A stretch of DNA of 64,000 nt from positions 779,812-843,811 of the forward strand of contig CAWGTU010000003.1 of assembly GCA_963825635.1 (NCBI GenBank), written 5' to 3'. Positions within the stretch are counted from its first letter, which is position 1. Each line of letters begins with the position of its first letter. The notes under the pieces are model-generated. The model saw nothing but the letters and a program-made list of their open reading frames with translations, was not told where the DNA came from and did no database searches. Both the position numbers and the translations under genes were made by a program. Shown here in pieces: positions 3,389 through 57,684 of this stretch. Source of the DNA: an uncultured Actinomycetes bacterium (GTDB taxonomy: Bacteria; Actinomycetota; UBA4738; HRBIN12).

Positions 3389-4201
3389 TCAACCCTCCGC
3401 TCGGTGCGTCCGGGACCGCAGCACGACCCAGACCAGCACCGCCGCGACCGCCGCCGCTCCGGCCGCTGCCGCGATCGACGGCTTCGGGGGCGGCACCGCC
3501 TGGGCGATGCGCGTGCGCAGCCGAACCGGTCGCCGGAAGTCGCGCACCTGCCACCCACGCTCCTCGGCCTCCCGTCGAAGGTCGCGATCGGGATTCACCG
3601 CGACCGGATGCCCCACGACCGAGAGCATCGGCAGGTCGGTGACCGAGTCGCTGTAGGCGTACGAGGCATCGAGGTCGATGCCGAGTCGTTCCGCGAGCCC
3701 CTCGATCGCCTCGGCCTTCTGCTCCCCGTAGGCGTAGAACGCCAGCTCACCCGTGTACCGGCCGTCCTCGTCGATCTCGGCACGCGTCGCGATCACGCCG
3801 CTGGCACCGAAGTGCTGACTCAGCGGGCGCACGACCTCCTCGGGCGAGCTCGAGACGATGTAGATGCGCCTGCCCTCGCTACGGTGCAGGGCCATGAGGT
3901 CGAGCGCCTCTTGGTACACGTACGGGTCGATCACGTCGAAGATCACCTCGCGTACCAGCGTCTCCACCTGATCCTGGTTCCAGCCCTTCGTGAGCGAGAG
4001 CATGCCCTCCTTGAGCCGCTCCATCTTGTCCTCGTCGGCTCCGACCAGCAGGTAGACGAGCTGGGCGTAGGCGCCCCGGAGCAGCTGGGATCTCGACACC
4101 ATGCCCGCCCGATAGAGGGGACGCGACAGGGCGAGCGACGACGATCGGGAGATGATCGTCTTGTCGAGGTCGAAGAACGCTGCTTCCATCGTGTTTCCCA
4201 T
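3389..4201 (-). CDS. HAD-IB family hydrolase (phosphoserine-phosphatase-like) with C-terminal transmembrane tail
   Basis: HAD motif I FFDLDKTI is near the N-terminus, and the architecture matches HAD-IB. The C-terminus has a hydrophobic stretch (AAAAGAAAVAAVLVWVVL). Start is placed at MGNTMEAAFFDLDKT (ATG 4201). Confidence 0.7.
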   Translation of the reverse strand: MGNTMEAAFFDLDKTIISRSSSLALSRPLYRAGMVSRSQLLRGAYAQLVYLLVGADEDKMERLKEGMLSLTKGWNQDQVETLVREVIFDVIDPYVYQEALDLMALHRSEGRRIYIVSSSPEEVVRPLSQHFGASGVIATRAEIDEDGRYTGELAFYAYGEQKAEAIEGLAERLGIDLDASYAYSDSVTDLPMLSVVGHPVAVNPDRDLRREAEERGWQVRDFRRPVRLRTRIAQAVPPPKPSIAAAAGAAAVAAVLVWVVLRSRTHRAEG

Positions 4202-4245
4202 CGTACGGTCGGTCGCCGACCTGGAGCCGTTCGACCGACGAACCC

Positions 4246-4791
4246 CTAGCGGCGGACCCTCCCGAGCGTCGCGCGATACGTGGTGAGCCACGCGAGCTCG
4301 GCCTCGGCGAACGCTTCCTGCTGGCGGAGCAGGGCCGCGGAGACGGAGCGACCGGGGTCGCGCTCACCGGCGGTGCGGTCGAGCTCGGTGCGCACGGCGT
4401 CGAGCAGGTCGCGGACCGATCGTTCGCGGGCGTCGGCAGCTGCTCTGGCGAGGGAGGCCGGCACCACGTGCGCGAACCCGAGGGCCACGGCGGCCCGTGA
4501 GTCCATCGGCGCGAGCGCGGCGGCCATCTCGGTCACGCCGTCTGCGAGGCGTTCGCGTCCCTGCTTCGTGATGCGGAAGACGCGCCGGTCCGGCCCGTCC
4601 CTGCCCTCCTGCGCCTTGCCGACGATCGATCCGTCGCGTTCGAGCCGCTTGAGCACCTGGTAGGCGGACGCCCGGCTCAGCTCGGTCCAGAACCCCATGC
4701 TGCGAGATCGGAAGCGCTCGAGCAGGTCGTAGCCGTGCATCGGCCCTTCCGCCAGCAACCCCAGCACCACGACCTCCACCTTCGTCGCCAT
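4246..4791 (-). CDS. PadR family transcriptional regulator
   Basis: N-terminal winged-helix region LGLLAEGPMHGYDL...SRASAYQVLKRLERDG matches the PadR signature. Confidence 0.8.
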   Translation of the reverse strand: MATKVEVVVLGLLAEGPMHGYDLLERFRSRSMGFWTELSRASAYQVLKRLERDGSIVGKAQEGRDGPDRRVFRITKQGRERLADGVTEMAAALAPMDSRAAVALGFAHVVPASLARAAADARERSVRDLLDAVRTELDRTAGERDPGRSVSAALLRQQEAFAEAELAWLTTYRATLGRVRR

Positions 4792-4877
4792 CGCCCCTGC
4801 TCCTAGTCTGGATTGGATTAGTTGTCAGTGTACCGCCTCCGTCGGGGACATCTGGCCAGGGCGGGTAGCCTTGTGCC

Positions 4878-4969
4878 GGAGGCGTCAGGGTTCCTGGTGG
4901 GCCCCGCGGTCTTCAAAACCGATGTGGGGGCGCAAGCTCCCAGGCGGGTTCGATTCCCGTCCGCCTCCG
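4878..4969 (+). tRNA. selC: tRNA-Sec (selC), anticodon UCA
   Basis: - Seen in sequence: a 92-nt element GGAGGCG...GGTCTTCAAAACC...GGCGGGTTCGATTCCCGT-CCGCCTCC-G.
- The 5' strand GGAGGCG pairs with the 3' strand CGCCTCC as an acceptor stem.
- T-arm is GCGGG-TTCGATT-CCCGT.
- A 7-nt anticodon loop CTTCAAA (U33, anticodon UCA) is closed by GGT/ACC.
- There is a long GC-rich variable arm (TGGGGG-CGCAAG-CTCCCA) and a G discriminator with no encoded CCA.
- Anticodon loop, variable-arm style and T-loop closely resemble E. coli selC (GGACTTCAAATCC...GGTTCGACTCC).
- The D-arm could not be resolved by eye. Confidence 0.65.
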
Positions 4970-4971
4970 CG

Positions 4972-7692
4972 ATGCACGAGACCGAGGACGAGCGGGGCCG
5001 GTACCCGGCCCATCGAGAGACCGACGTCGTGCTGCGAGACGGCAGCACGGTGCACATCCGTCCCGCTCGGTCCGAGGATCGTGAGCGCGTCGAGGACTAC
5101 CTGATCGGATTGTCGGACGAGTCAAGGCGTCTGCGCTTCTGGGGCATGTCGGTCGACATCACCGACGTGGCTGCCAGGGCGGTCGACGTCGACTACGTCG
5201 ACCACCTGACCCTGCTCGCGTTCGCGGGAGGACGTGAGGGCACGGTCATCGGCGGCGCCCAGTACGTCCGCGAGGGCAGCACGCCGCGGGCGGAGGTGAG
5301 CGTCAGCATCGCCGACGCCCTGCAGGGCCACGGACTCGGATCGATCCTGATCGCCCACCTCGCCCAGGCGGCCGAAGCCAACGGCATCGAGACCTTCGTG
5401 GCGCAGGTGCTGCCGGAGAACCACCGCATGATCGACGTGTTCCGCCGCACCGGGTTCGCGGTGCGCATCCGCGCGGTCCCCGGTGAGGTCGAGGTGGAGT
5501 TCCCCACCGAGATCACGGACGAGGCTGCGGAGCGTTACGAGGAACGGGAGGACGCGGCGGCGGCAGCGGCCGTGCGGCTGCTGCTGGAGCCGACGTCCGT
5601 CGCCGTGATCGGCGCGTCGCGCGACCCTTCGTCGATCGGAGGCCGCCTGCTGCACAACCTGCTGTCGGGTCCGTTCCAGGGAGTCGTGTACCCCGTCAAC
5701 CCCAGTGCGCCGGCGGTGCAGGGCGTGCCCGCCTACCCCTCGGTCGTCGACGTGCCCGGTGACGTCGAGGTCGCGTTCGTCGCGGTGCCCGCCGCGGGGG
5801 TCGTCGACGTCGCCCGCCAGTGCGCCGCCAAGGGCGTACGGGGGCTGATCGTGATCTCGGCGGGATTCGGCGAGACCGGCCCCGAGGGGCTCGCGCGCCA
5901 GCACGATCTGCTCGACGTCTGCCGCGCCAGCGGCATGCGCCTGATCGGTCCGAACTGCATGGGCATCGTGAATACCGACCCCGAGCTCGTGCTGAACGGC
6001 ACGTTCTCCACGGCGTGGCCACCTCTGGGCCGCGTGGGATTCCTGTCCCAGAGCGGCGCTCTGGGCCTCGCGGTGATGGGGCAGGCGGCGGCGCTCGGGC
6101 TCGGCCTGTCGACGTTCGTCTCGGTGGGGAACAAGGCCGACGTCTCGGGCAACGACCTGCTCTGCTACTGGGAGCAGGACGATCGCACCGACCTGGTGAT
6201 GCTCTACCTCGAGAGCTTCGGCAACCCTCGCCGGTTCGGGCGGCTCGCTCGTCGCATCGGCCGCACGAAGCCCGTCGTCGTGGTGAAGTCCGGCCGCAGT
6301 GCGGCAGGGCAGCGCGCGGCGTCCTCGCATACCGGTGCCCTGCTGGCGGCCAGCGACACGACCGTCGACGCGCTCTTCCGACAGCACGGCGTGATCCGCA
6401 CCGACACCCTCGAGGAGATGTTCGACGTCGCGACGCTGCTCGCGAACCAGCCCGTGCCGGCCGGCGCTCGCGTTGCGATCGTCACGAACGCTGGCGGACT
6501 CGGCATCCTCTGCGCCGACACGTGCGAGGCCAACGGCCTGTCGGTGCCCGAGCTCGCCCCCGAGACGGTCGCCTCGCTCGAGTCGTTCCTGCCCGATGAG
6601 GCCTCGCTCTCGAATCCCGTGGACATGATCGCCTCGGCCACCCCCGCGGACTACGGGCAGGCGATCGGCACGGTCGCCGCCGATCCGAACGTCGACGCGA
6701 TGATCGCGATCTACATCCCGCCGCTCGAGTCCGATGCCCCTGCCGTCGCGACCGCGCTCGTGGACGCGATCACCCGGATCGACGGGCGCATCCCCGTCCT
6801 CACCTGCTTCATGTCGTCGCGCGGACTACCCGATGCGTTGCGGGCGCCCGGTCTCCGCATCCCGTCGTTCGCATACCCGGAACAGGCCGCGATCGCCCTC
6901 GCCCACGCGACCGGTCTCGGGGTGTGGCGCGCCAAGCCCGAAGGGACCGTCCCGTCGTTCGAGGTGCGCGAGGACGAGGCGGCGGCGGTGATCGCGGATG
7001 CCCTGACGCGCGGGGAAGGGTGGCTCACCCCTGAGGAGGTCCGGGTCCTCCTCGACTGCTACGGAGTACCCGCCGCACGACAGGCGCGGGCGTCGTCACC
7101 CGAGGAAGCCGCCGAGGCGGCGGCATCGGTCGGTTCGACGATCGCGCTCAAGGCGATCGGCCCCGTCCACAAGACTGAGTCGGGCGCGGTCGTGCTCGAT
7201 CTCTCTCCCGCCGACGTGCTGGAGTCGGCCAGGGCGATGTCCGAGCGCGTGATCGCCGCCGGGGAGCCGTTCGACGGATTCCTCGTGCAGGAGATGGTGG
7301 CTCCCGGCGTGGAGATGCTCGTCGGCGCCGTGGCCGATCCCGTGTTCGGGCCGGTGATCGCGGTGGGAGCGGGCGGGGTGACGGTGGAGCTCACACGCGA
7401 CGTCGCCGTACGGGTCGCGCCGCTCACCGACCTCGACGCCGAGGAGATGGTGCGCTCGCTGGCGACGTTCCCTCTGCTCGACGGGTTCAGGGGCGCCGAG
7501 AAGGCCGACGTGGCAGCGCTCGCCGACGTGGTGCTGCGGCTGGGTGCGATCGCGACGGCCCACGATGCGATCGCGGAGATGGACTGCAACCCTGTCATCG
7601 TGCACACCCACGGCGCCGTCGTCGTCGATGCGCGCATCTCGGTGCAGACGCCGTCGCCCCCAACCCCGTTCGGTGCTCGCTCCCAAGGGTGA
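4972..7692 (+). CDS. Pat-type protein lysine acetyltransferase (N-terminal GNAT fused to NDP-forming acyl-CoA synthetase-like CoA-binding/ATP-grasp domains)
   Basis: N-terminal GNAT region (QGHGLGSILIAHLAQ, ...FVAQVLPENHRMIDVFRRTGF). This is followed by a CoA-binding domain (SVAVIGASRDPSSIGG), succinyl-CoA-synthetase-like domains and an ATP-grasp domain. GNAT-first order matches the Streptomyces-type PatA arrangement. Start set at ATG 4972, immediately after the tRNA; the ORF track's 4822 start would overlap the tRNA. Confidence 0.8.
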   Translation: MHETEDERGRYPAHRETDVVLRDGSTVHIRPARSEDRERVEDYLIGLSDESRRLRFWGMSVDITDVAARAVDVDYVDHLTLLAFAGGREGTVIGGAQYVREGSTPRAEVSVSIADALQGHGLGSILIAHLAQAAEANGIETFVAQVLPENHRMIDVFRRTGFAVRIRAVPGEVEVEFPTEITDEAAERYEEREDAAAAAAVRLLLEPTSVAVIGASRDPSSIGGRLLHNLLSGPFQGVVYPVNPSAPAVQGVPAYPSVVDVPGDVEVAFVAVPAAGVVDVARQCAAKGVRGLIVISAGFGETGPEGLARQHDLLDVCRASGMRLIGPNCMGIVNTDPELVLNGTFSTAWPPLGRVGFLSQSGALGLAVMGQAAALGLGLSTFVSVGNKADVSGNDLLCYWEQDDRTDLVMLYLESFGNPRRFGRLARRIGRTKPVVVVKSGRSAAGQRAASSHTGALLAASDTTVDALFRQHGVIRTDTLEEMFDVATLLANQPVPAGARVAIVTNAGGLGILCADTCEANGLSVPELAPETVASLESFLPDEASLSNPVDMIASATPADYGQAIGTVAADPNVDAMIAIYIPPLESDAPAVATALVDAITRIDGRIPVLTCFMSSRGLPDALRAPGLRIPSFAYPEQAAIALAHATGLGVWRAKPEGTVPSFEVREDEAAAVIADALTRGEGWLTPEEVRVLLDCYGVPAARQARASSPEEAAEAAASVGSTIALKAIGPVHKTESGAVVLDLSPADVLESARAMSERVIAAGEPFDGFLVQEMVAPGVEMLVGAVADPVFGPVIAVGAGGVTVELTRDVAVRVAPLTDLDAEEMVRSLATFPLLDGFRGAEKADVAALADVVLRLGAIATAHDAIAEMDCNPVIVHTHGAVVVDARISVQTPSPPTPFGARSQG

Positions 7693-7759
7693 CCTCGAGG
7701 TGCCCGTCGGCGCGTGACTCGCACCGTCGCTCACCGAAACCCGCGCTACCCTGGATGCC

Positions 7760-8080
7760 ATGAGCAGCGTGGAGCGCATCAAGCACCTCGCCGAGCGGGC
7801 CGACATCGCCGCCGAGGAGCTCTTGGAGTTCCTCGAGTCCCCGTCCGGCCGGCGCATGCGCAACGTGCTCGCCGGAGCCGTGATCGTCTCCGCGCCGCTG
7901 ATCATGCGCGTTCCCGGCCTGAAGCGGTCGCCCCTCGGCAGGCTCGTCGCCATGACCGGCGGCAGCGCGATCCTGATCGGCATCGCCGAGGCGATCCGCG
8001 ACTGGGAGCGCAGCGAGTCGTCGAAGGGACGTCGACGTTCCGTGATCGACGTGCCGCCCCCGAGCCCTGGGAGTGGCTGA
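7760..8080 (+). CDS. hypothetical small membrane protein
   Basis: 106 aa with two hydrophobic segments (AGAVIVSAPLIM, LVAMTGGSAILIGIA). No family was recognised. Confidence 0.4.
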   Translation: MSSVERIKHLAERADIAAEELLEFLESPSGRRMRNVLAGAVIVSAPLIMRVPGLKRSPLGRLVAMTGGSAILIGIAEAIRDWERSESSKGRRRSVIDVPPPSPGSG

Positions 8081-8082
8081 GG

Positions 8083-9402
8083 TTACGGCTCTGCCGGCTC
8101 GACGGGCCCCTCCGGCACCTCGGCCCTCGACGGGACATCCTCGAGATGCAGCTCGTCGTCGATCTGGTCGGGTGCGAGCGTGCCGACCGTGCCTCGGCTG
8201 ATCGCGCGCGCATAGAGGAAGAGCGCCGGTAGACGAAGCAGCCCCGAGACGACCAGGGCCGTCGGCACCGAGACCGAGCGGGCGATCAGCCCGATACCCG
8301 GTCCCCCGGCCGCCTGACCGATCGCATCGGACTGGGAGCCGATCGAGTTGATCGTGGCACGGGTCTTGGCGTCCAGGCCCTGATTGATCCACGCCGTGAA
8401 CACGGGCTCCCGCACGCTTCGCAAGGTTCCCACGAGCCAGAACATCGCGAGGGCGAGCCAGAAGCTCGACGCCAACGCGAACACCACCACCGCGACGACC
8501 AACACGACGTCGACGACCGCCAAGACACGGGCAACCGTGCCGTGTCCCTGCAGATGCACCCGTCGCTTCACGATCGCCAGGGCGCCGATGCCGAGCAGCA
8601 GCGCCCCGCCGTCGAGGATGCCGAACCACACCGGCAGCTCGAGCCCTCCCACGGTCGGCAGCCCGATGTCCTCCAGCAAGTGGAGGTCGCTCAGTCGGTC
8701 GAACCCCTCGGTCGACATACCGTGGAGTGCCGCAGTGCCGAGGATCAGCAGCAGCACGTGGTGGGCACGCACCGCGGCCACGCCCTCGCGGACGGTCGTT
8801 GCGAGCGAGGTGTGCAGCCGTTCGCCCTCTCGGCGTTCGGGCTGGAACCCCTCCTCACGCATCGTGATCGCCATGAAGACCCCGAGCGCGATGAACCCGA
8901 GTCCCGAGACCAGGATCGGTGTTCGGAGGCTCGAGAACGACGCGATCGTCACACCCACCGCGATGCCGAGGAGCGAGCCCCACTGCCACCACTGCTCGCT
9001 GCGCAAGTACATCGGCTGTGCCGCCTCTTCACCGATCTCGTCGGTGAGCCACGCGACGTCGGCGCCGCTCTGGAACGTGGCGAACACCCCCCACAGTGCC
9101 TGAGAGAGCACGGCGATCGCGAACGACTCGGCCGCGCCCAACACCAGGAACGCGACCCCGGTACCGAGCAGGCCGATCACGACCGAGAGACGGCGGCTCG
9201 CGGTGTCGGCGACGATCCCGGTCGGCACCTCCAACAGTAGGTACGTGAGCTCGAGCACCGTGCCGAGCAGCAGCAGCTCGAACGGTCCAAGCTGAAGTTC
9301 CACGATCAGGAAGACGCTGAATAACACCGACATCAGGTGGAAGAAGAAGCCCTCACCCGTCGAGTAGACGAGGTAGACGGTCTCGGGTCGCGGCCGACGC
9401 AT
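8083..9402 (-). CDS. MFS transporter
   Basis: 439 aa with about 12 predicted TM segments. MFS-like loop motif after TM2 (GIVADTASRRLSVVIGLLG). Confidence 0.8.
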   Translation of the reverse strand: MRRPRPETVYLVYSTGEGFFFHLMSVLFSVFLIVELQLGPFELLLLGTVLELTYLLLEVPTGIVADTASRRLSVVIGLLGTGVAFLVLGAAESFAIAVLSQALWGVFATFQSGADVAWLTDEIGEEAAQPMYLRSEQWWQWGSLLGIAVGVTIASFSSLRTPILVSGLGFIALGVFMAITMREEGFQPERREGERLHTSLATTVREGVAAVRAHHVLLLILGTAALHGMSTEGFDRLSDLHLLEDIGLPTVGGLELPVWFGILDGGALLLGIGALAIVKRRVHLQGHGTVARVLAVVDVVLVVAVVVFALASSFWLALAMFWLVGTLRSVREPVFTAWINQGLDAKTRATINSIGSQSDAIGQAAGGPGIGLIARSVSVPTALVVSGLLRLPALFLYARAISRGTVGTLAPDQIDDELHLEDVPSRAEVPEGPVEPAEP

Positions 9403-15190: not shown

Positions 15191-16897
15191 TCAGGCGCGG
15201 GTCGTGATCTCCTCAGGGAGCCAGAACCAGCGGAGGTGCTCGAAGTCCTGACCGACGTCGAGCGGCGCCTCGCCCGAGCCAGGCGACGGGGCCGGAGCCG
15301 GCGACGCGGCGAACGCCGCTCGCGCCTCGTCGAGGTAGCCGGCCAGGGCCGACTCAGATGCCCGGTGGCGGTGGCCGGTGAACGTCATCCGGCCACCTGG
15401 ATACCGGACGTCGTCGAGCGACATCGGAGGTTCGGGCTGGCCGTCCACGTGGCGCCACATGCCCGTCACCGCGTCGAAGCGATATCGGGGGAGCAGCCTC
15501 CAACCGTGTGTCGCCACCATGTCCACCGCGTCGAGCACGTACTCGAACACGGTCTCGGTGATGAAGTAGTTGAAGTTCACCCGCACCCAGCCGGGCTTGA
15601 TGCCCTCGCACCCGCGGGCGATCTCGCGCTCGAACGCATGCGACGTCTCGGGGTCGATGCCGAGCAGCCGGTGGCCATAGGGGCCCGCACATGAACACCC
15701 TCCTCGCGCCTGGACACCGAACAGATCGTTCAGCACCGCGACCACGAAGTTGTGGTGGAGATACCGGTCCTGGTGCCGGACGACGAACGACACGATGGAG
15801 AGGCGTGGGAGGTCGTGGCTCCCGAGGATGTCGATCGCGGGGTTCTGCTCCCATCGATGCATCGCCCGATGGATGAACGACTCTTCGCGCTCCCGGATCA
15901 CCTCGGCCCCGACGGCGCGCTTCAGCTGGAAGACGAGACCCGCGCGGATCGATCCGACGATATCGGGGGTGCCACCCTCCTCCCGCCGTTCGATGTCGTC
16001 GAGGTACACGTGCTCTGTGGGGTTCACATAGGCGACCGTGCCGCCGCCGGGGACGCTCGGCACCCGGTTGCCGAAGAGCTCGCGTCGCGCCACCAGCACC
16101 CCGGGGGTGCCGGGCCCCCCGACGAATTTGTGCGGGGAGACGACGATCGCGTCGAGGGCGGCGAGCGCGTCGCCGCCCGGCGTCATCTCGATCTCGACGT
16201 AGGGCGCGGCGGCGGCATAGTCCCAGCAGGAGAGGGCACCGTGACGGCGCAGCAGGGACGAGAGCGCCCCGACGTCGGAGAGGATGCCGGTCACGTTCGA
16301 GGCTGCGGAGAAGCTCCCGATCTTCAGGGGGCGGTCGGCGTACTGGAGCAGTGAACGCTCGAGCGCCGCGAGGTCGATACGACCGTCGTGGTCCTCGGGC
16401 ACGGTCACGAGATCGGCGATCGACTCCCGCCACGGAAGGTCGTTCGAATGGTGCTCGTACGGTCCGATGAAGACCACCGGTCGTTCCGACGCCGGGATCC
16501 GTTCGAGCAGCGCGTACCGATCATCGAGCCCGGCGGGCAGCCGCAGTCCGAGGCAGTCGATCAGGGTGGCGATCGCTCCGGTCGACCCACTGCCGCAGAA
16601 GATCACGGCGTGGTCGCGCTCGTTCGCGCCGCACGCCTCGCCCACGGTGCGCCGCGCATCCTCACGGAACCGCGTCGTCTGCAGCCCGGTGCCGCTCGAC
16701 TCCGAGTGGGTGTTCGCGTAGAGCGGCAGCACGGTCTCGCGGATGAAATCCTCGATGAACGAGAGCGATCGCCCCGAGGCCGTGTAGTCGGCGTACGTGA
16801 CGCGTCGCACGCCGAAGGGAGTGGCGATCGCCTCGTCTTCCCCGATCACCGCCGACCTGATGGTGTCGATCAACGCGTCGTCACCCACGCGCGGCAT
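15191..16897 (-). CDS. aminotransferase class V-fold PLP-dependent enzyme (cysteine-desulfurase-like)
   Basis: 568 aa. AAT-V-like regions (ANTHSESSGTG, ...SPHKFVGGPGTPGVL) with a PLP-lysine context SPHKF. Confidence 0.7.
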   Translation of the reverse strand: MPRVGDDALIDTIRSAVIGEDEAIATPFGVRRVTYADYTASGRSLSFIEDFIRETVLPLYANTHSESSGTGLQTTRFREDARRTVGEACGANERDHAVIFCGSGSTGAIATLIDCLGLRLPAGLDDRYALLERIPASERPVVFIGPYEHHSNDLPWRESIADLVTVPEDHDGRIDLAALERSLLQYADRPLKIGSFSAASNVTGILSDVGALSSLLRRHGALSCWDYAAAAPYVEIEMTPGGDALAALDAIVVSPHKFVGGPGTPGVLVARRELFGNRVPSVPGGGTVAYVNPTEHVYLDDIERREEGGTPDIVGSIRAGLVFQLKRAVGAEVIREREESFIHRAMHRWEQNPAIDILGSHDLPRLSIVSFVVRHQDRYLHHNFVVAVLNDLFGVQARGGCSCAGPYGHRLLGIDPETSHAFEREIARGCEGIKPGWVRVNFNYFITETVFEYVLDAVDMVATHGWRLLPRYRFDAVTGMWRHVDGQPEPPMSLDDVRYPGGRMTFTGHRHRASESALAGYLDEARAAFAASPAPAPSPGSGEAPLDVGQDFEHLRWFWLPEEITTRA

Positions 16898-16928: not shown

Positions 16929-17936
16929 TCAGGCGCGCTGCTCGAGGCTGGTCAGCGAGGGCTGCCCCCGCTTGCGCCGGTACATCGACTCGTCGGCCTG
17001 ACGGAGCAGGGTGCGGGCGTCGTCGCCGTCGTACGGGAAGACACTCCAGCCGATGCTGGCCTGCATCCTGACGTCGCCCACGCGCAACCCGAAGGGCTGC
17101 TCGAGGGCCGACTCGATGCGATGCACCACGGCGATGATCGAAGCCTCGACGTTGGCGCCCGCGACACCCGGAGCGATATCGGTGAGGAGCACGATGAACT
17201 CGTCCCCGCTCTGACGCGCCACGAGGTCGGCATCGCGCACGACCGCCTTCAGCCGCACCGCCACCTGCTTGAGCACCTCGTCCCCCGTGTCGTGTCCGTG
17301 CACGTCGTTCACGGGCTTGAACCGGTCGAGGTCGAGGAAGAGGACGGCCACCGCCGAGCCCAGCCGCCTGGCCCTCGCGACGGCGACCACGAGATGCTCC
17401 TCGAGCATCGCCCGGTTCGGCAGGCCGGTGAGGTGGTCGTGGTGCGCCAGATGCTGCATCCGGAGCTCGGCCTCCTTCGTGGGCGTGATATCGAGCATCA
17501 CCCCCTGGATGTACAGCGGCTCGCCCCGTTCGTCGCGGATCGTCGACGATCGGTCGCTGACCCACACGACGCGGCCGTCCGGGCGCACGTACCGGTACTC
17601 ACCGGCCTCCGGTTGGCCGGTGCGCAGGTAGGACTCGTAGTCGAGACGGGAGCGCTCGCGGTCGTCCGGGTGGATCAGGTCGTCCCAGATGCCCTCGTCC
17701 GCGAGGAAGTCCGACGCCGGAACCCCCAGGAGCTCCTCGACGTAGGGGCTCATGTAGTACGTCGGGCCGTCCAGCCTCGGCGAGTACGTGTAGATGGCGG
17801 CGGGGAGCTGCTCGAGCAGTGCAGCGTACCGAGCCTCGGCCTCGTAGACGCGAGCCTCCGCCACGCGCAGACGTCGCTGCACGCCCTCGGTATCGGGCTC
17901 GTGGTGGCGTTCGTCGTCGCGCTGCGGCAACTGCAT
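16929..17936 (-). CDS. PAS domain-containing diguanylate cyclase (GGDEF)
   Basis: PAS region followed by GGDEF-domain motifs (HDHLTGLPNR, ...RQSGDEFIVLL). Confidence 0.8.
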   Translation of the reverse strand: MQLPQRDDERHHEPDTEGVQRRLRVAEARVYEAEARYAALLEQLPAAIYTYSPRLDGPTYYMSPYVEELLGVPASDFLADEGIWDDLIHPDDRERSRLDYESYLRTGQPEAGEYRYVRPDGRVVWVSDRSSTIRDERGEPLYIQGVMLDITPTKEAELRMQHLAHHDHLTGLPNRAMLEEHLVVAVARARRLGSAVAVLFLDLDRFKPVNDVHGHDTGDEVLKQVAVRLKAVVRDADLVARQSGDEFIVLLTDIAPGVAGANVEASIIAVVHRIESALEQPFGLRVGDVRMQASIGWSVFPYDGDDARTLLRQADESMYRRKRGQPSLTSLEQRA

Positions 17937-18009
17937 GGGCGCTCTCCTGGTCGAGGAGTCCTTCCCGTGGCCGGAGTATCGGCACGGCGCACCCGATGCC
18001 TGAGAACGC

Positions 18010-18037
18010 GACGAGCGGCCCCGAAGGGCCGCTCGTC
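18010..18037. terminator. perfect 12-bp inverted repeat hairpin downstream of the sigma-factor gene
   Basis: GACGAGCGGCCC-CGAA-GGGCCGCTCGTC lies between the sigma-factor stop (18060) and the next gene start (17936) on the minus strand. No U-tract, which is common in high-GC actinobacteria. Confidence 0.4.
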
Positions 18038-18059
18038 GGTTCGCAGGTGGGCGGCGGGG

Positions 18060-18992
18060 TTACCCGAGCGCCACCGCGTTGATCAGGTTCGAGTCGCGCA
18101 GCTTGCGCAGCGCCTCACGCTCGATCAGCCGTACACGCTCACCGGAGAGACCGAGCACCTTGCCGGTCTCGCGCAGGCTGAGCGGCTGCCCATTCTCCAG
18201 CCCGTACCGCAGCGCTACGACATGGCGCTCGCGCTCGTCGAGCACGCGATCGACGGCGCCTCCGATCTCCTCGCGGAGCAGGGCGTCCTCGACCTCGTTG
18301 AAAGCGGCGTCGGAGTCGACCTCCTCGATCAGATCGCCGAGCTCGGTGTCCTCGCCCACCGGCGATTGCAGCGACAACGGCTCACGGCGACCCATCTCGG
18401 TGAGGTCGTCGATCTCCTCGACCGTGGTGTCGAGCGCCTTGGCGAGCTCCTCGCGCGAGGGCTCGCGGCCCATCGACTGCGCGAACTGGAACCGCGTGCG
18501 GTTCAGCTTGCGCAGCCGGTCGTGGATGTGCACCGGCAGGCGGATCGAGCGCGAGCGGTCGGCGATCGCACGCGTGATGCCCTGACGGATCCACCACGTG
18601 GCGTAGGTCGAGAACTTGAACCCGCGACGCCAGTCGAACAGCTCGACCGCGCGCATCAGGCCGATGTTCCCTTCCTGGATCAGGTCGAGGAGCGGCAGAC
18701 CCTGTCCCTGGTACTTGCGGGCCACCGACACCACCAACCGCAGGTTGGCCATGATGAATCGCTGGCGCGCGGCCTCGGCCGTGCGCACATCACGGCGGGC
18801 CTTCGCGATGCTCTTCTCGGACCGCAGACGGCCGGCACGCAGGCGCTCTTCGGCCTCCTTGCCAGCCTCGATCGTCATGGCGAGCTCGACCTCTTCCTCT
18901 TTGGTGAGCAGCGGCTCGCGGGCCGCCGCCTCCAGGTAGAGGCGCAGGTCATCGGCGTCATCGGTCCCTAGGGGACGCGCTGGCTCCGGCAC
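18060..18992 (-). CDS. RNA polymerase sigma-70 family factor (group 2-like, SigB/HrdB-related)
   Basis: Region 2 ([16 protein letters not shown]), region 3 and region 4 ([29 protein letters not shown]) are present. A 410-nt leader lies upstream. Confidence 0.85.
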
Positions 18993-19402
18993 TTCGTATC
19001 ACGCTCCTCCTCGAGGCCACTCGATCGCACGGGGCGACGTCGTCGGTCCTCGGGAACTCGGGTTCCTCGGTCGGTCGGGCGGTTCCGGCTGCAGGGGATC
19101 GAGGCGCGCGGAAAGAAACGCCTTGGCAGCCGCTCGTCGGTATGGTAGGGGGTTCGACTCGGGTTTGTAAAGCCGGGCGGGTGTGGAGGTCTCGTGAAGG
19201 CTGCCACGACCGCGTGATCTTGTCTCGGACGTGTCGGCCATCTCTTCCCCCCTCGCCCCGGCTCAGGTACCTGCTTCAACACCGTGAGCTGCGGAAACCT
19301 TCCCGTTCGTCCCGCTCTTCATTGGTCGTTCGACTCGCGAACGCTGCTGGATGTGCTGTTCCCGACACAGAGGCAGATCGCCGACATCGGTAGCCTTCCG
19401 GG

Positions 19403-46512: not shown

Positions 46513-47172
46513 TCAGGCCCGCGATAGCGCGGTGAATCCACGCTGCACCACCGTGAACACCCCCAGCGTCGCGAGCACGATCAGCGCCGGGAACATCATG
46601 CCGGGGATCAGCAGCCCGATCATGAGCGCGAGCATCCGCTCGAGGCGTTGGAACAGCCCTTCGCTGAGGCTGATGCCGACGGCCTCGGCCTCGGCGCGGA
46701 TCTGACTCACCCCGAGGCTGACGATCAGCGTGAGCAGCGCGAGCCCCGCCTGCACCATCTCGCCCTGCGCGGCCAGGTTCCAGAACAGGCACGAGAACAG
46801 GATCATGTCCGAGACGCGGTCGAGCACCGAGTCCATGAACGCGCCCGACCGCTTCTCCTCGCCTCGGTGACGTGCCACCGAGCCGTCGAAGACGTCGAGC
46901 AGGCTCCCGACGATCAGCAGGAAGCCGGCCACGAGCCAGTTCCCGACCACGATCTGCCACCCTGCGAGCACGATGAAGACCGGGGACAGCAGCGTGAGCT
47001 GCCACGGCCGCACCCCGGTCCAGATCAAGAACGCGAGGATCGCCCGGTAGGGCCAGGCGAGCAGGCGCTGCATCGCGCCGCCGGCGGCGCTCTCGTTCTT
47101 GCGGGGCGGCGGCATGTCCCGCACCCGAGGTGCCTCCCGCTCGGATCGGTCCGCGTGCTCCTCGTTCGTCAC
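46513..47172 (-). CDS. CDP-alcohol phosphatidyltransferase family protein
   Basis: Signature D-G-x2-AR-x8-G-x3-D-x3-D is present (DVFDGSVARHRGEEKRSGAFMDSVLDRVSD). Confidence 0.7.
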   Translation of the reverse strand: MTNEEHADRSEREAPRVRDMPPPRKNESAAGGAMQRLLAWPYRAILAFLIWTGVRPWQLTLLSPVFIVLAGWQIVVGNWLVAGFLLIVGSLLDVFDGSVARHRGEEKRSGAFMDSVLDRVSDMILFSCLFWNLAAQGEMVQAGLALLTLIVSLGVSQIRAEAEAVGISLSEGLFQRLERMLALMIGLLIPGMMFPALIVLATLGVFTVVQRGFTALSRA

Positions 47173-47199
47173 TAGTCCATTCCAGACTAGTTCGCAGGT

Positions 47200-47739
47200 C
47201 TACCCCGCGAACGGTTCGAAGCTCACGACCACGTACCGCACGGTCCCCGCGGGGGCCTCGTAGGCGACCTCCTGCTTCGCGGCGGCGCCCACCAACGCCG
47301 CCCCGAGCGGAGACGTCGTGGTCACGGTGCGCGCCCCGGGGGCCTTCTCCTCGGCGTGCTCGGCGAGCAGGTACGTCTCCTCGTCGTCGTCGTCGTCGTC
47401 CACGGGCCGGAGCGTGACGAGCATGCCGGGTCCGATCTCGTCGGCGTGCTCGGGGGTCTCCACGATCTCGGGGTCGCGCAGCATGTGCTGCAGCTTGCGG
47501 ATCTTCGACTCCATCAGGCCCTGCTCGTCCTTCGCGGCGTGGTACTCGGCGTTCTCCTTGAGGTCGCCGTGCTCGCGCGCGACCTTGATCTTCTCGGTGA
47601 TGCGCTCCCGGCCGTGCGTCGTCATCTCCTCGAGCTCGGCCTTGATGCGCAGGTACGCGTCGAGGGTGAGGGTGGCGGTGGGCTCCTGTCCGGCCGCGCG
47701 GGCGGGACGGTTCTTCAGCTCCTCGGGCAGCTCAGGCAT
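47200..47739 (-). CDS. greA: GreA/GreB family transcription elongation factor
   Basis: N-terminal coiled-coil with the acidic tip (HGDLKENAEYHAAKDEQ) and a C-terminal FKBP-like domain. Confidence 0.8.
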   Translation of the reverse strand: MPELPEELKNRPARAAGQEPTATLTLDAYLRIKAELEEMTTHGRERITEKIKVAREHGDLKENAEYHAAKDEQGLMESKIRKLQHMLRDPEIVETPEHADEIGPGMLVTLRPVDDDDDDEETYLLAEHAEEKAPGARTVTTTSPLGAALVGAAAKQEVAYEAPAGTVRYVVVSFEPFAG

Positions 47740-47758
47740 GTCGCGAGTGTACCGATGG

Positions 47759-49188
47759 TCAATCCTGCGAGAAGTAGATGTTCTTCACCTCCGTGTAGAG
47801 CTGCACGGCCGCCATGCCCATCTCGCGTCCGATGCCGCTGCGCTTGAACCCCCCGAACGGGGCCTCGGTGTGCACGCTCGAGGCCGAGTTCACGCTGAGG
47901 TTCCCGGTGCGGATGCCCTTGGCGACCCGGATCGCCCGGCCGAGGTCACGCGTCCAGATGGTGCCCGACAGGCCAAACGGCGAGTCGTTCGCGAGCCGGA
48001 TCGCCTCGTCCTCGGTGTCGAACGGGATCACGCAGACGACCGGGCCGAAGATCTCCTCCTGGGCGACCCGCCAGGCGTTGTCGACGTCGGCGAGCACGGC
48101 CGGGCGCATGAAGAAGCCGTCGCCGTCGGGCACGTCGCCGCCGGTGACGTGTCGCGCCCCCTCGTCGATGCCGATCGACAGGTAGTCGAGCGAGGTCTGC
48201 CGCTGCCCCGACGAGATCAGCGGCCCCATCTCGGTCGCGTCGTCGAGCGGCTGACCGACGGTGATCGCCTCGGTCCGTGCGACGAAACGCTCGAGGTACT
48301 CGTCGTAGACACCCCGCTGCACGAACTGGCGCGAGCGAGCGCAGCAGTCCTGCCCCGCGTTGTCGAAGACCGACCAGAGGGACTTCTCGACGCAGACGTC
48401 GAGGTCGGCGTCGTCGAAGACGACGTTGGCCGACTTGCCGCCGAGCTCGAGCGAGACGCGCGTGATGTTCGTCGCGGCAGTCTGCATCACCGACGTGCCG
48501 ACCTCGGTCGATCCCGTGAACGAGACCTTCGCGACGCGCGGATCGGCGATCAACGCGCTCGCCGTGCTGGATCCGGGCCCGGGCAGCACGCTCAGGGTGC
48601 CCTCGGGAAGCCCTGCCTCGTAGAGGATGTCGGCGAGCGCCAGCGCGGTGAGCGGGGTCTGCGATGCGGGCTTCACGACCGCGGTGTTGCCGCACGCGAG
48701 CGCGGGGGCGATCTTCCAGCTCGCGATCACCGCCGGGAAGTTCCACGGGGTGATCAGCGCACAGACGCCCACCGGCTCGCGCAGGGTGACGTCGAGCCCG
48801 GGCGGCACGATCGGGATCGTCTCGCCGGTGATCTTGTTCGCGGCCCCGCCCCAGTACTCGAAGACGTTGGCGACGATGTCGATCTCGCCGCGGGCCGCCG
48901 AGATCGGCTTGCCCCCGTTGCGGGCCTCGAGCTCCGCGAGCCTCTCCTGGTGCTCCCGGACCAGGAAGGAGGCCTTCGTCAGCACCCGACCACGCTCGCG
49001 GGCCGACAGCCGGGGCCACGCGCCCTCCTCGAAGGCCCGGGTCGCGACGTCGACGGCCCGGGTCGCATCCTGCGCGGCCCCCGTGGCCACCTCCGCCATC
49101 GGCGCCCCGCTCGCCGGCTCGACCACGTGGACGGTCGCCCCATCGAGGGCCTCCACGCGCTCGCCGCCCAACACGATCAGCTCGCTCA
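47759..49188 (-). CDS. NAD(P)-dependent aldehyde dehydrogenase
   Basis: Catalytic motifs ELGGKS and ...GQDCCA... are present. GGGAGG RBS. The real start is inside a spurious 812-aa ORF. Confidence 0.85.
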
Positions 49189-56297: not shown

Positions 56298-57684
56298 GTG
56301 ATGGAGCAGCAAGGCTTGCTCGACGCGGAAGAGCTCGAAGGACGCGCGAACGCCGGCGAGATCGACACCGTCCTGTGCATGTTCACCGACCTGCAGGGCC
56401 GGTTCATGGGCAAGAGGCGTGCTGCCCGACTTCTTCCTGCACGAGATCCTGGGCGAGGAAGGCCTGCACGCCTGCCTCTACCTGCTCGCGATCGACATGG
56501 AGATGGAGCCGCTCCCCGGCTACGAGTACGCGAGCTGGGAGACCGGGTACGGCGACTTCCGCATGGTGCCCGACATGTCGACCCTGCGGTGGTGCCCATG
56601 GCTCGAGAAGACCGTGATGGTGATCTGCGACATCGCCGACGAGGAGACCGGGGAACCGGTCGAGGTCGCGCCGCGCACGATCCTCAAGCGACAGATCGAG
56701 CGAGCGGCGAAGGCCGGCTACACGATCAAGACGGGGTCCGAGCTCGAGTTCTACCTGTTCAAGGACGGCTACGACGAGCTCGCGGAGCGCGGCTACCGCG
56801 ACCCCAGGCCGTCGTCGAGCTACATCATGGACTACCACATGCTCCAGACCACCAAGGACGAGTGGATCATCCGCCAGATCCGCAACGGCATGCGGGGGGC
56901 GGGCATCCCGGTGGAGTTCTCGAAGGGCGAGTTCGGCAAGGGTCAGCACGAGATCAACATCACCTACGCCGACGCGCTCACGACGGCCGACTATCACGTG
57001 CTCTACAAGCACGGGGTCAAGGAGATCTGCGCCGCCAACGGCGTGGCCGCCACGTTCATGGCGAAGTGGACGATGGACGAGGCGGGCTCCTCGTGCCACA
57101 TGCATTCGAGCGTGTGGAACGCGAAGGGCACGAAGTCGCTGATGTACGACGAGAAGGGCGAGCACCACCTCTCCGAGACCTACCGCCACTACATGGGCGG
57201 TCTCATGGCAACCGCGCGCGAGATGTCGTTCATGTTCGCGCCGTTCGTGAACTCGTACAAGCGCTACCAGCTCGGCTCGTGGGCGCCGACGGCCATCGTG
57301 TGGAGCCGCGACAACCGCACGTGCGGGTTCCGCACCGTCGGCGAGCACACCGGCGCGCGTGTGGAGAACCGCATCCCTGGTGGCGACGTGAACCCCTACC
57401 TCGCGTACGCGGCGACGATCGCCGGAGGGATGTACGGCCTCGAGAACGAGATCGAGCCGCCCGCGATGTTCAAGGGCAACGCGTACGAGGCCAAGCGGGT
57501 GCCGAGGGTGCCGACGAGTCTTCACGAGGCGATCGACGTGTTCCGCAGGAGCAAGGTCGCCAAGGAAGCGTTCGGCGACTTCGTGTTCGGGCACCTGCTG
57601 AACACGGCCGTGCAGGAGCAGGCGATCTTCGACAACCTCTGCATCACCGACTGGGAGATGACCAGGTACTTCGAACGCGGCTGA
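56298..57684 (+). pseudogene. glutamine synthetase family protein (GlnA3/GlnA4/PuuA-like gamma-glutamyl ligase), apparent +1 frameshift
   Basis: The first 39 codons (MMEQQGLLDAEELEGRANAGEIDTVLCMFTDLQGRFMGKR) are in frame 0, and the remainder (VLPDFFLHEILGEEGLHAC... to the stop at 57684) is in frame 1. The junction is at about 56415-56419; deleting 1 nt in aagaggCgtg gives ...GRFMGKRVLPDFF... The GS catalytic domain is intact downstream (EFGKGQHEINI, GSSCHMHSSVW). GAGGAGG RBS. Confidence 0.7.

Follow-up and report, generated by a model that had tools for sequence, protein, structure and literature searches.

Selenocysteine tRNA gene at the junction of padR and pat

The window, by which we mean the whole 64,000-nucleotide stretch of DNA that was analysed, carries a gene for a selenocysteine tRNA, selC (4878..4969, + strand, 92 nt including the discriminator G4969), between two protein-coding genes. 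Divergent from it lies a gene for a padR-family regulator (4246..4791, - strand), assigned by Pfam (PF03551) and synteny and a conserved neighbour of selC in the clade. Downstream, across a spacer of two nucleotides, CG (4970..4971, +), begins pat (4972..7692, +), which encodes a Pat-like protein acetyltransferase of 906 aa, as judged from Pfam and from the lengths and N-termini of its homologues. Its Pfam domains are, from the N-terminus onwards, GNAT, CoA-binding, succinyl-CoA-ligase-like and ATP-grasp, the C-terminal region resembling an NDP-forming acyl-CoA synthetase.

selC is the sole tRNA reported by ARAGORN in the 64 kb (tRNA-SeC, anticodon tca, 4878..4970, +) and the sole Rfam cmscan match above the gathering score in the window (RF01852, tRNA-Sec, 4878..4968), the alignment covering model positions 1-91 of 91 and scoring 76.4 bits, where the threshold is 47 (E=6.4e-14). 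Folded alone, it forms a full cloverleaf of -48.6 kcal/mol (z=-3.0), a value equalled by 2 of 200 shuffled sequences. All its arms lie on the + strand. The acceptor, seen in the sequence and in the minimum free energy (MFE) fold, has 7 bp (GGAGGCG, 4878-4884, with CGCCTCC, 4962-4968); the D-arm (4888-4905) has six Watson-Crick or GU pairs broken by an internal U.C and a 4-nt loop, UGGU; the anticodon arm (4907-4921) presents TCA (4913-4915) in the 7-nt loop CTTCAAA; the variable arm (4925-4942) has 7 bp and a GCAA loop; and the T-arm (4943-4961) has 6 bp, namely GCGGG-TTCGATT-CCCGT plus an extra G:C pair, around the loop TTCGATT. Acceptor and T-stem together make a helix of 13 bp (7 + 6), both in the MFE fold and in the family consensus. 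The gene encodes no CCA after G4969, the next bases being CGA.

Several features of a tRNA-Sec are recognized by the proteins that act on it. The 13-bp acceptor/T helix of tRNA-Sec is required for SelB and acts against EF-Tu, a long variable arm and G73 are identity elements for seryl-tRNA synthetase (SerRS), and a 6-bp D-stem with a 4-nt loop, of which the window gene has the loop and an interrupted stem, is a feature recognized by SelA. A preliminary description of this DNA had placed a selC gene with anticodon UCA at 4878-4969, listing the acceptor, the T-arm, the CTTCAAA loop and the G discriminator; each of these is present in the sequence, and the identification is borne out by Rfam, by covariation in the family and by the tRNA-predictor check that had been proposed, in which ARAGORN folded the element as tRNA-Sec with anticodon tca.

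An actinobacterial tRNA-Sec family

A pattern made of the T-arm and the 3' acceptor strand, run against one genome per prokaryotic species, returned at least 120 loci, nearly all from Actinomycetota and nearly all called tRNA-Sec(tca) by ARAGORN; among the loci listed are representatives of Streptomyces, Mycobacterium, Pseudonocardia, Nocardioidaceae, Geodermatophilaceae and Acidimicrobiia. The RNAalifold consensus of the 103 unique sequences among the matches listed has an acceptor of 7 bp, a T-stem of 6 bp and a variable arm of 7 bp, as well as the D-stem and the anticodon stem. Compensatory double changes occur at 15 of its 29 pairs, and at most variable-arm pairs both sides are altered in 38-61 of the 103 sequences; for the acceptor and T-stem the covariation is uninformative, their 3' strands being fixed by the search pattern.

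The canonical bacterial division of the 13-bp helix is 8/5, which the window selC does not have, its eighth acceptor pair being a would-be U.C. The same mismatch (A.C in a few) stands at this position in all 113 actinobacterial copies among the matches listed, so the family as a whole is of the 7/6 form. Such a 7/6 variant was published for Mycobacterium in July 2026 (Behra, Ramesh, Pettersson and Kirsebom, RNA Biol, PMC13449736), and since the window gene shares it, positions 4878-4969 hold a genuine selC of ordinary actinobacterial type. The tRNA itself thus belongs to a known, recently described type that extends across the phylum.

Departure from the 8/5 form could also point to a tRNA-Sec-like molecule of another identity, for example an allo-tRNA or a UGA suppressor carrying serine or cysteine. 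This we regard as very improbable, given that the helix has 13 bp whereas allo-tRNAs have 12 bp (PMC5389517), that dozens of Actinomycetota, mycobacteria included, have the identical acceptor/T sequence between their selD and selA genes, and that in mycobacteria genes for the Sec machinery and for selenoprotein formate dehydrogenase (FDH) are present and, by RNA-seq, transcribed (PMC13449736).

Set beside the mycobacterial genes (PMC13449736), the window selC, an ordinary tRNA-Sec gene in our reading, has the same 5' acceptor strand, GGAGGCG, and an identical T-arm and 3' acceptor (GGCGGGTTCGATTCCCGTCCGCCTCCG), and both have the 7-bp acceptor and 6-bp T-stem, G73, the long variable arm and UCA. 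Overall identity with a mycobacterial-type copy (L085; loci are numbered L001 onwards) is 68%, and the two kinds differ in that the D-arm of the window gene is 1 nt longer, in that CCA is encoded in most mycobacteria (PMC13449736) but not here, and in that selD adjoins the mycobacterial-type selC but not the window gene.

The element had also been described as strikingly similar to E. coli selC. This applies to the generic hallmarks: both have the loop CUUCAAA with UCA, D-loop GGUG, T-loop UUCGAxU, G73, a long variable arm and a 13-bp acceptor/T helix, and both fall in the same Rfam family. It does not extend to the sequence as a whole, which is 59% identical to that of K-12 (b3658) and finds no blastn match in any complete E. 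coli genome, nor to the acceptor/T split, which is 8/5 in E. coli and 7/6 here. The E. coli form is attributed to off-register RNase P cleavage by Burkard and Soll 1988, as cited in PMC13449736. Furthermore, E. coli selC encodes CCA, which the window gene does not, and has no protein gene directly 3', the next annotated feature being the pseudogene yicT, 108 nt downstream.

Two side observations came from the family scan. In Geodermatophilus, Blastococcus, Modestobacter and Trujillonella the selC anticodon is CUA, not UCA, and ARAGORN labels these genes 'Pyl' (L050, L053, L056, L078, L079, L090, L113, L119); this is consistent with the recoding of Sec to UAG reported in that family, the Geodermatophilaceae. 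Typical actinobacterial selC genes were also found on contigs binned as Gemmatimonadota, Acidobacteriota, Oscillatoria and Planctomycetaceae (L038, L047, L065, L066), one of which (L065) carries actinobacterial selA and selD as well; mis-binning is likelier than gene transfer for these contigs.

The start of pat and a recurrent annotation error

In the list of open reading frames pat is preceded by an in-frame extension: the ORF runs from a TTG at 4822 to 7692 and passes through selC. As the preliminary description had noted, the ORF caller in this way masks the tRNA, and the stretch 4822..4971 (+), which takes in the predicted selC promoter as well as the tRNA, is a spurious, non-coding N-terminal extension. 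ATG 4972, 2 nt past the tRNA end, is the sole start codon that lies after the tRNA and before the conserved motif YPxH..D(V/L)VLRDG, and it yields an N-terminus of the length seen in homologues, which typically have 899-908 aa; the start that had been proposed there is supported. The error recurs in public data, where three Pat entries (P0001, P0006 and P0015, of 939, 954 and 937 aa) open with '...EASGFLVGPAVFKTDVGAHAPRRVRFPSASAM', which is translated tRNA, and such false N-termini map to L001 10001-10099, L004 10001-10144 and L007 10001-10096.

Could the ORF from TTG 4822 nonetheless supply the real N-terminus of Pat, with peptides matching 'GFLVGPAVFKTDVG...', and the tRNA-like fold be coincidental? 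The frame is uninterrupted through the tRNA and three public annotations use an equivalent extension. Yet most of the 120 Pat homologues listed begin 10-23 residues before the conserved motif and have no extension, throughout the phylum the same 92 nt stand before unrelated genes, among them selA and ppx, and covariation tracks the RNA helices, with an Rfam E-value of 6e-14. A coding extension is on these grounds scarcely credible, and the region beneath it is conserved as RNA and not as codons. Where the tRNA is missed, Pat thus acquires a false N-terminus of 30-50 residues, an error that affects at least three public protein clusters.

Predicted transcription from the mature 5' end of the tRNA

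Immediately upstream of selC lies a hexamer resembling a -10 element, TAGCCT (4866..4871, +), which is of the form TANNNT and whose promoter function is predicted; it ends 6 nt before tRNA base 1, so that C4877 would stand at -1 and G4878 at +1. In Mycobacterium smegmatis, mapped promoters have ANNNT between -6 and -13, with TANNNT preferred, and start sites have G or A at +1 with C enriched at -1 (PMC6448022). We used this actinobacterial TANNNT rule because the consensus of a generic sigma-70 promoter and terminator scan, which returned nothing between 4200 and 8200, is of E. coli type and too strict for a genome of 70% GC. With TANNNT at 6 nt, a purine at +1 and a pyrimidine at -1, the window selC fits the sequence rule of a leaderless transcription unit, as a prediction.

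The arrangement is shared by much of the family. Of the 112 unique actinobacterial upstream regions among the matches listed, 74 have a TANNNT whose end lies 6-8 nt before selC (6 nt in 14, 7 nt in 56 and 8 nt in 4), compared with about 0.5 expected by chance per position over these 112 loci, and almost none are found at other positions. In the 69 listed loci where the hexamer stands at 6 or 7 nt, the base preceding the tRNA is always C or T; it is G or A in 27 of the 39 listed loci that lack the hexamer. Mycobacterial-type loci differ from the window in this respect, having no such box and mostly G at -1 where the window has the box at 6 nt and C. From the position of the hexamer, selC is predicted to be transcribed from the mature 5' end of the tRNA or within 1 nt of it, and the same is predicted for about two thirds of the actinobacterial selC genes listed; a start at or within 1 nt of G4878 would leave little or no trimming for RNase P.

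A probable shared transcript and a predicted near-leaderless pat mRNA

The junction between selC and pat is conserved. Tracing locus contexts through Pat homologues, we found the succession of tRNA, 2 nt and ATG kept in six lineages (the window, L001, L003, L004, L132 and L007); the junction reads CG-ATG in L001, L003, L007 and L130-L132 as in the window, and CC-ATG in L004, where G73-CC-ATG makes an apparent CCA overlap the start codon. Two of these contigs, L130 (Ga0075304_1000294) and L131 (Ga0208781_1000694), come from JGI soil metagenomes and represent the same organism as the window, the first 200 residues of Pat being 100% identical and the selC junction the same.

The 94 nt upstream of the pat ATG (4878-4971) contain no TA dinucleotide, and hence no internal -10 box for pat, and the scan of 4200-8200 gave no terminator-like site. 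Where pat is detached from selC its promoter takes a recognizable form: TANNNT stands 6-7 nt before a homology-fitting pat start in 27 of 36 metagenome loci and in L005, L006, L008 and L095, which, at that distance from ATG or GTG, makes pat a leaderless gene. In this the pat homologues are like actinobacterial leaderless mRNAs generally, with TANNNT 6-7 nt before ATG or GTG and no room for a Shine-Dalgarno sequence. Taken with the -10 box at selC, the leaderless state of pat elsewhere suggests that selC and pat are probably transcribed as one unit.

The predicted course of events can be set out as follows. A SigA-type -10 box, TAGCCT at 4866-4871, would start transcription at or within 1 nt of G4878, and RNA polymerase, meeting neither terminator nor promoter between the tRNA and pat, would read on into pat to give a single transcript, ppp-tRNA-Sec-CG-AUG-pat. 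A cut after G4969 (G73) would free the tRNA, to which CCA would then be added enzymatically, as it is not encoded. The pat mRNA that remains would have the spacer CG as its entire 5' leader and would be leaderless by the criterion of a leader of at most 5 nt (Martini 2019, PMC6448022, citing Cortes 2013 and Shell 2015). Processing at the tRNA 3' end would in this way generate a near-leaderless pat mRNA whose 5' end, predicted to be a monophosphate, differs from the triphosphate that initiation leaves on ordinary leaderless mRNAs; a 2-nt leader may also be less well translated than a true 5'-terminal AUG.

Protein genes downstream of tRNAs are familiar from the E. coli thrU-tyrU-glyT-thrT-tufB operon, where a single promoter serves both the tRNAs and a protein gene and the tRNAs are cut from the 5' part of the transcript. 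In that operon an ordinary leader and a ribosome-binding site precede tufB, in contrast to the pat start 2 nt past the tRNA end in the window, and the overlap of the pat start codon with an encoded CCA in L004 likewise departs from the tufB arrangement. Mycobacterial selC is co-transcribed with selA-selB, as paired-end RNA-seq has established, with gaps of 11-75 nt (PMC13449736). What follows selC thus differs, being pat at 2 nt in the window and selA at 11-75 nt in mycobacteria, and the selC-pat gap is smaller than any selC gap reported there.

Alternatively, selC and pat might be expressed independently: an unrecognised promoter within the tRNA gene, or overlapping it, would drive pat, and the close packing would reflect only genome compaction. 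About 21% of mapped M. smegmatis promoters have no ANNNT -10 motif (PMC6448022), so a pat promoter could exist here despite the absence of TANNNT, and in L006, L095 and L139 pat does have its own -10 box in a spacer of 47-57 nt after selC, from which it follows that read-through from selC is not obligatory in the family. We nevertheless consider independent expression unlikely in the window, where not even a TA occurs in the 94 nt before the ATG; detached pat genes regain a canonical TANNNT at 6-7 nt, which is their usual promoter type, and six lineages keep the junction to the nucleotide.

Returning to the shared transcript, we regard as highly probable the combined reading in which a functional actinobacterial selC has its promoter at the tRNA 5' end, read-through and processing lead to pat, and the gene caller has missed the tRNA. 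The stricter proposal, that in this clade tRNA-Sec serves as the whole, removable leader of pat, with a start on base 1, RNase P bypassed and 3' maturation yielding a leaderless pat mRNA, is more tentative and in our estimate falls a little short of an even chance. If it holds, one promoter and one cleavage would tie the making of a protein acetyltransferase to the supply of tRNA-Sec. The literature searched contained neither transcription of selC from the mature 5' end nor a tRNA acting as the leader of a leaderless mRNA; both predictions bear on the interplay between tRNA processing and leaderless translation.

Selenocysteine decoding

If the established bacterial pathway applies here, SerRS would charge the tRNA with serine, SelA would convert the product to Sec-tRNA using selenophosphate made by SelD, and SelB would bring it to those UGA codons that have a SECIS hairpin after them; on this scheme selA, selB and selD would have to sit outside the 64-kb window. 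Within it, Pfam finds no SelA, SelB, SelD or molybdopterin formate dehydrogenase domain among about 50 genes, and tblastn with Pfam-confirmed SelA and SelD probes from L085 gave no match in the window or in the clade loci. Likewise, no selA, selB, selD, formate dehydrogenase or selenoprotein candidate occurs in the stretches of about 22 kb that surround selC in seven relatives. Among the other actinobacterial loci listed, selA lies within 8 kb of selC in 59 of 113 by tblastn, and the same count applies to selD.

A scan of the 64-kb window for TGA codons flanked on either side by coding signal gave no selenoprotein candidate. The TGA at 1512 is the stop of a ThiS-like gene ending in GG, and that at 57522 is an antisense artefact. 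Four high-GC3 ORFs separated by TGA in the same frame at 3-2588, at first sight a candidate for a selenoprotein read through its UGA codons, are separate genes with their own starts, identified by translation and Pfam as GyrI-like, ThiS ending in GG, and BNR. The same holds for the ORF pairs at 16929-18998 and 46513-47784.

The tRNA could, then, be an orphan or relic whose Sec machinery has been lost and which is kept as a promoter-proximal leader of pat or as an attachment site. Its isolation fits: in the window and in all clade relatives selC lies away from any sel gene, unlike in most Actinomycetota, there is no selenoprotein candidate in 64 kb, and the neighbourhood is fluid, with one relative (L009) having ppx directly after selC and no pat. 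Against this stands the pattern of conservation. Between lineages the tRNA is 95-98% identical, pat 74-91% and the upstream 60 nt 48-73%, that is, near-random, and the excess over pat places the tRNA under strong purifying selection. No clade member has lost the anticodon loop, G73, the D-arm or any helix, and an intact anticodon arm would be needless in a mere leader. The few substitutions fall in loops or preserve pairing: the outermost pair of the anticodon stem varies among G.A, U:A and G:U, and a C to T change turns a D-stem pair into G:U. In addition, the SelW-like protein encoded by the sister-lineage genome L008 has UGA at its CxxU motif. We therefore think a relic decidedly unlikely, and that this organism decodes selenocysteine is plausible, with indirect support from the constraint on its tRNA and from the UGA gene of L008.

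The SelW-like gene (Rdx family) of L008 lies at 8492-8737 (+), with an in-frame TGA in the motif C-V-P-U (MAKRHHVRIEYCVP-U-G...) and a hairpin, GCCGCC-GGTCT-GGCGGC, just downstream; the public gene call has 54 aa only and starts past the TGA. From these features it is probably a genuine selenoprotein gene in a related genome, the Pat of L008 being 69% identical to that of the window; used as a tblastn probe, the protein found no homologue in the window. Recognition of selC means that UGA-containing genes in these uncultured soil Actinomycetota, the L008 gene being one example, need to be re-inspected.

About 10 kb from selC we also observed a conserved gene for an unusually long protein, of 560-625 aa, with the class-V aminotransferase fold (cysteine desulfurase/selenocysteine lyase superfamily), at 15191-16897 (-) in the window, 20704-22581 in L001 and 18336-20018 in L005.

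selC as a site of insertion and rearrangement

The locus is arranged in several ways among relatives. In the first, padR is followed by selC abutting pat (the window, L130/L131, L001, L003, L004, L132); in the second, padR again precedes selC, and 1.8-4.8 kb of unrelated genes separate selC from pat (L005, L135, L137); in the third, 7-9 kb separate padR from a joined selC-pat (L006, L007); and in the fourth, found in L008 and most of the more distant loci, pat stands without selC. In L009, already mentioned, pat has been lost.

Genomic islands of enteric bacteria such as LEE and SHI-2 target selC, and the preliminary description had pointed to the gene as an integration hotspot. For the relatives this is upheld. 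About 15 reference-genome loci among the matches listed carry just the 3' half of selC or its last 27 nt (partial copies in L012, L013, L025, L035, L045, L059, L072, L077, L086, L088, L106, L109 and L120), and a full selC is accompanied by a 27-nt repeat in L096 (repeat at 1304-1330) and L104 (repeat at 4797-4823), with 0.77 kb inserted between the two in L104. L012 has two tyrosine recombinase genes 3.4-6 kb from its partial selC; the ORFs beside the partial copies in L045, L104 and L027 have no Pfam domains, integrases being found only in L012. To judge by their sequence, the partial copies look like attachment-site remnants of integrated elements, and together with the inserts they show selC to be a place where DNA in this phylum is inserted and rearranged. 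As at the LEE and SHI-2 sites, the DNA 3' of selC varies among relatives and 3' fragments of selC are duplicated.

The window itself does not share in this. Unlike the LEE and SHI-2 islands it has no insert, repeat or integrase: no partial selC repeat longer than 13 nt is present in it or in L005-L007, and none of its roughly 50 proteins has an integrase domain in Pfam. The combination that marks a genomic island, a direct repeat of the tRNA 3' end and an integrase flanking foreign DNA, is accordingly absent from the window; signs of it are found in the relatives L012 (partial copy and recombinase genes), L096 and L104 (repeats), and inserts in L005, L135 and L137. The window is a compact, unoccupied selC site, and with no att-type repeat above 13 nt the insert in L005 is not demonstrable as a classical integrated element.

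A further stretch of 27 nt, contained in ...GCGAAGGGAACACTGTAAGAACCCC..., is identical 3' of selC on the unrelated contigs L005 (5197-5223) and L031 (144-170), with similar copies in L080 and L106; it could mark the border of a shared mobile element or belong to a conserved RNA.

The padR side of the locus

An exact look-up of the window PadR in the assembly collection gave no record. Next to the padR start lies an imperfect palindrome, CTAGTCTGGATTGGATTAG (4803..4821), recognized by sequence comparison. It is perfect, CTAGTC-N7-GACTAG, in L003, L005, L006 and L007, some 11-14 nt from the padR start codon, and one arm is degenerate in the window, where a repeat search at 4785-4880 accordingly returned only a trivial GGCCAG palindrome. 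Since the element travels with padR when selC is elsewhere, it is probably a PadR operator, serving autoregulation.

Upstream of padR is a conserved trio of genes, GyrI-like, ThiS/MoaD-like (1194-1514, ending in GG) and BNR/Sortilin-repeat (1515-2588), the last beginning 1 nt after the TGA of the ThiS/MoaD-like gene; the trio is also conserved in L001 and L003-L005.
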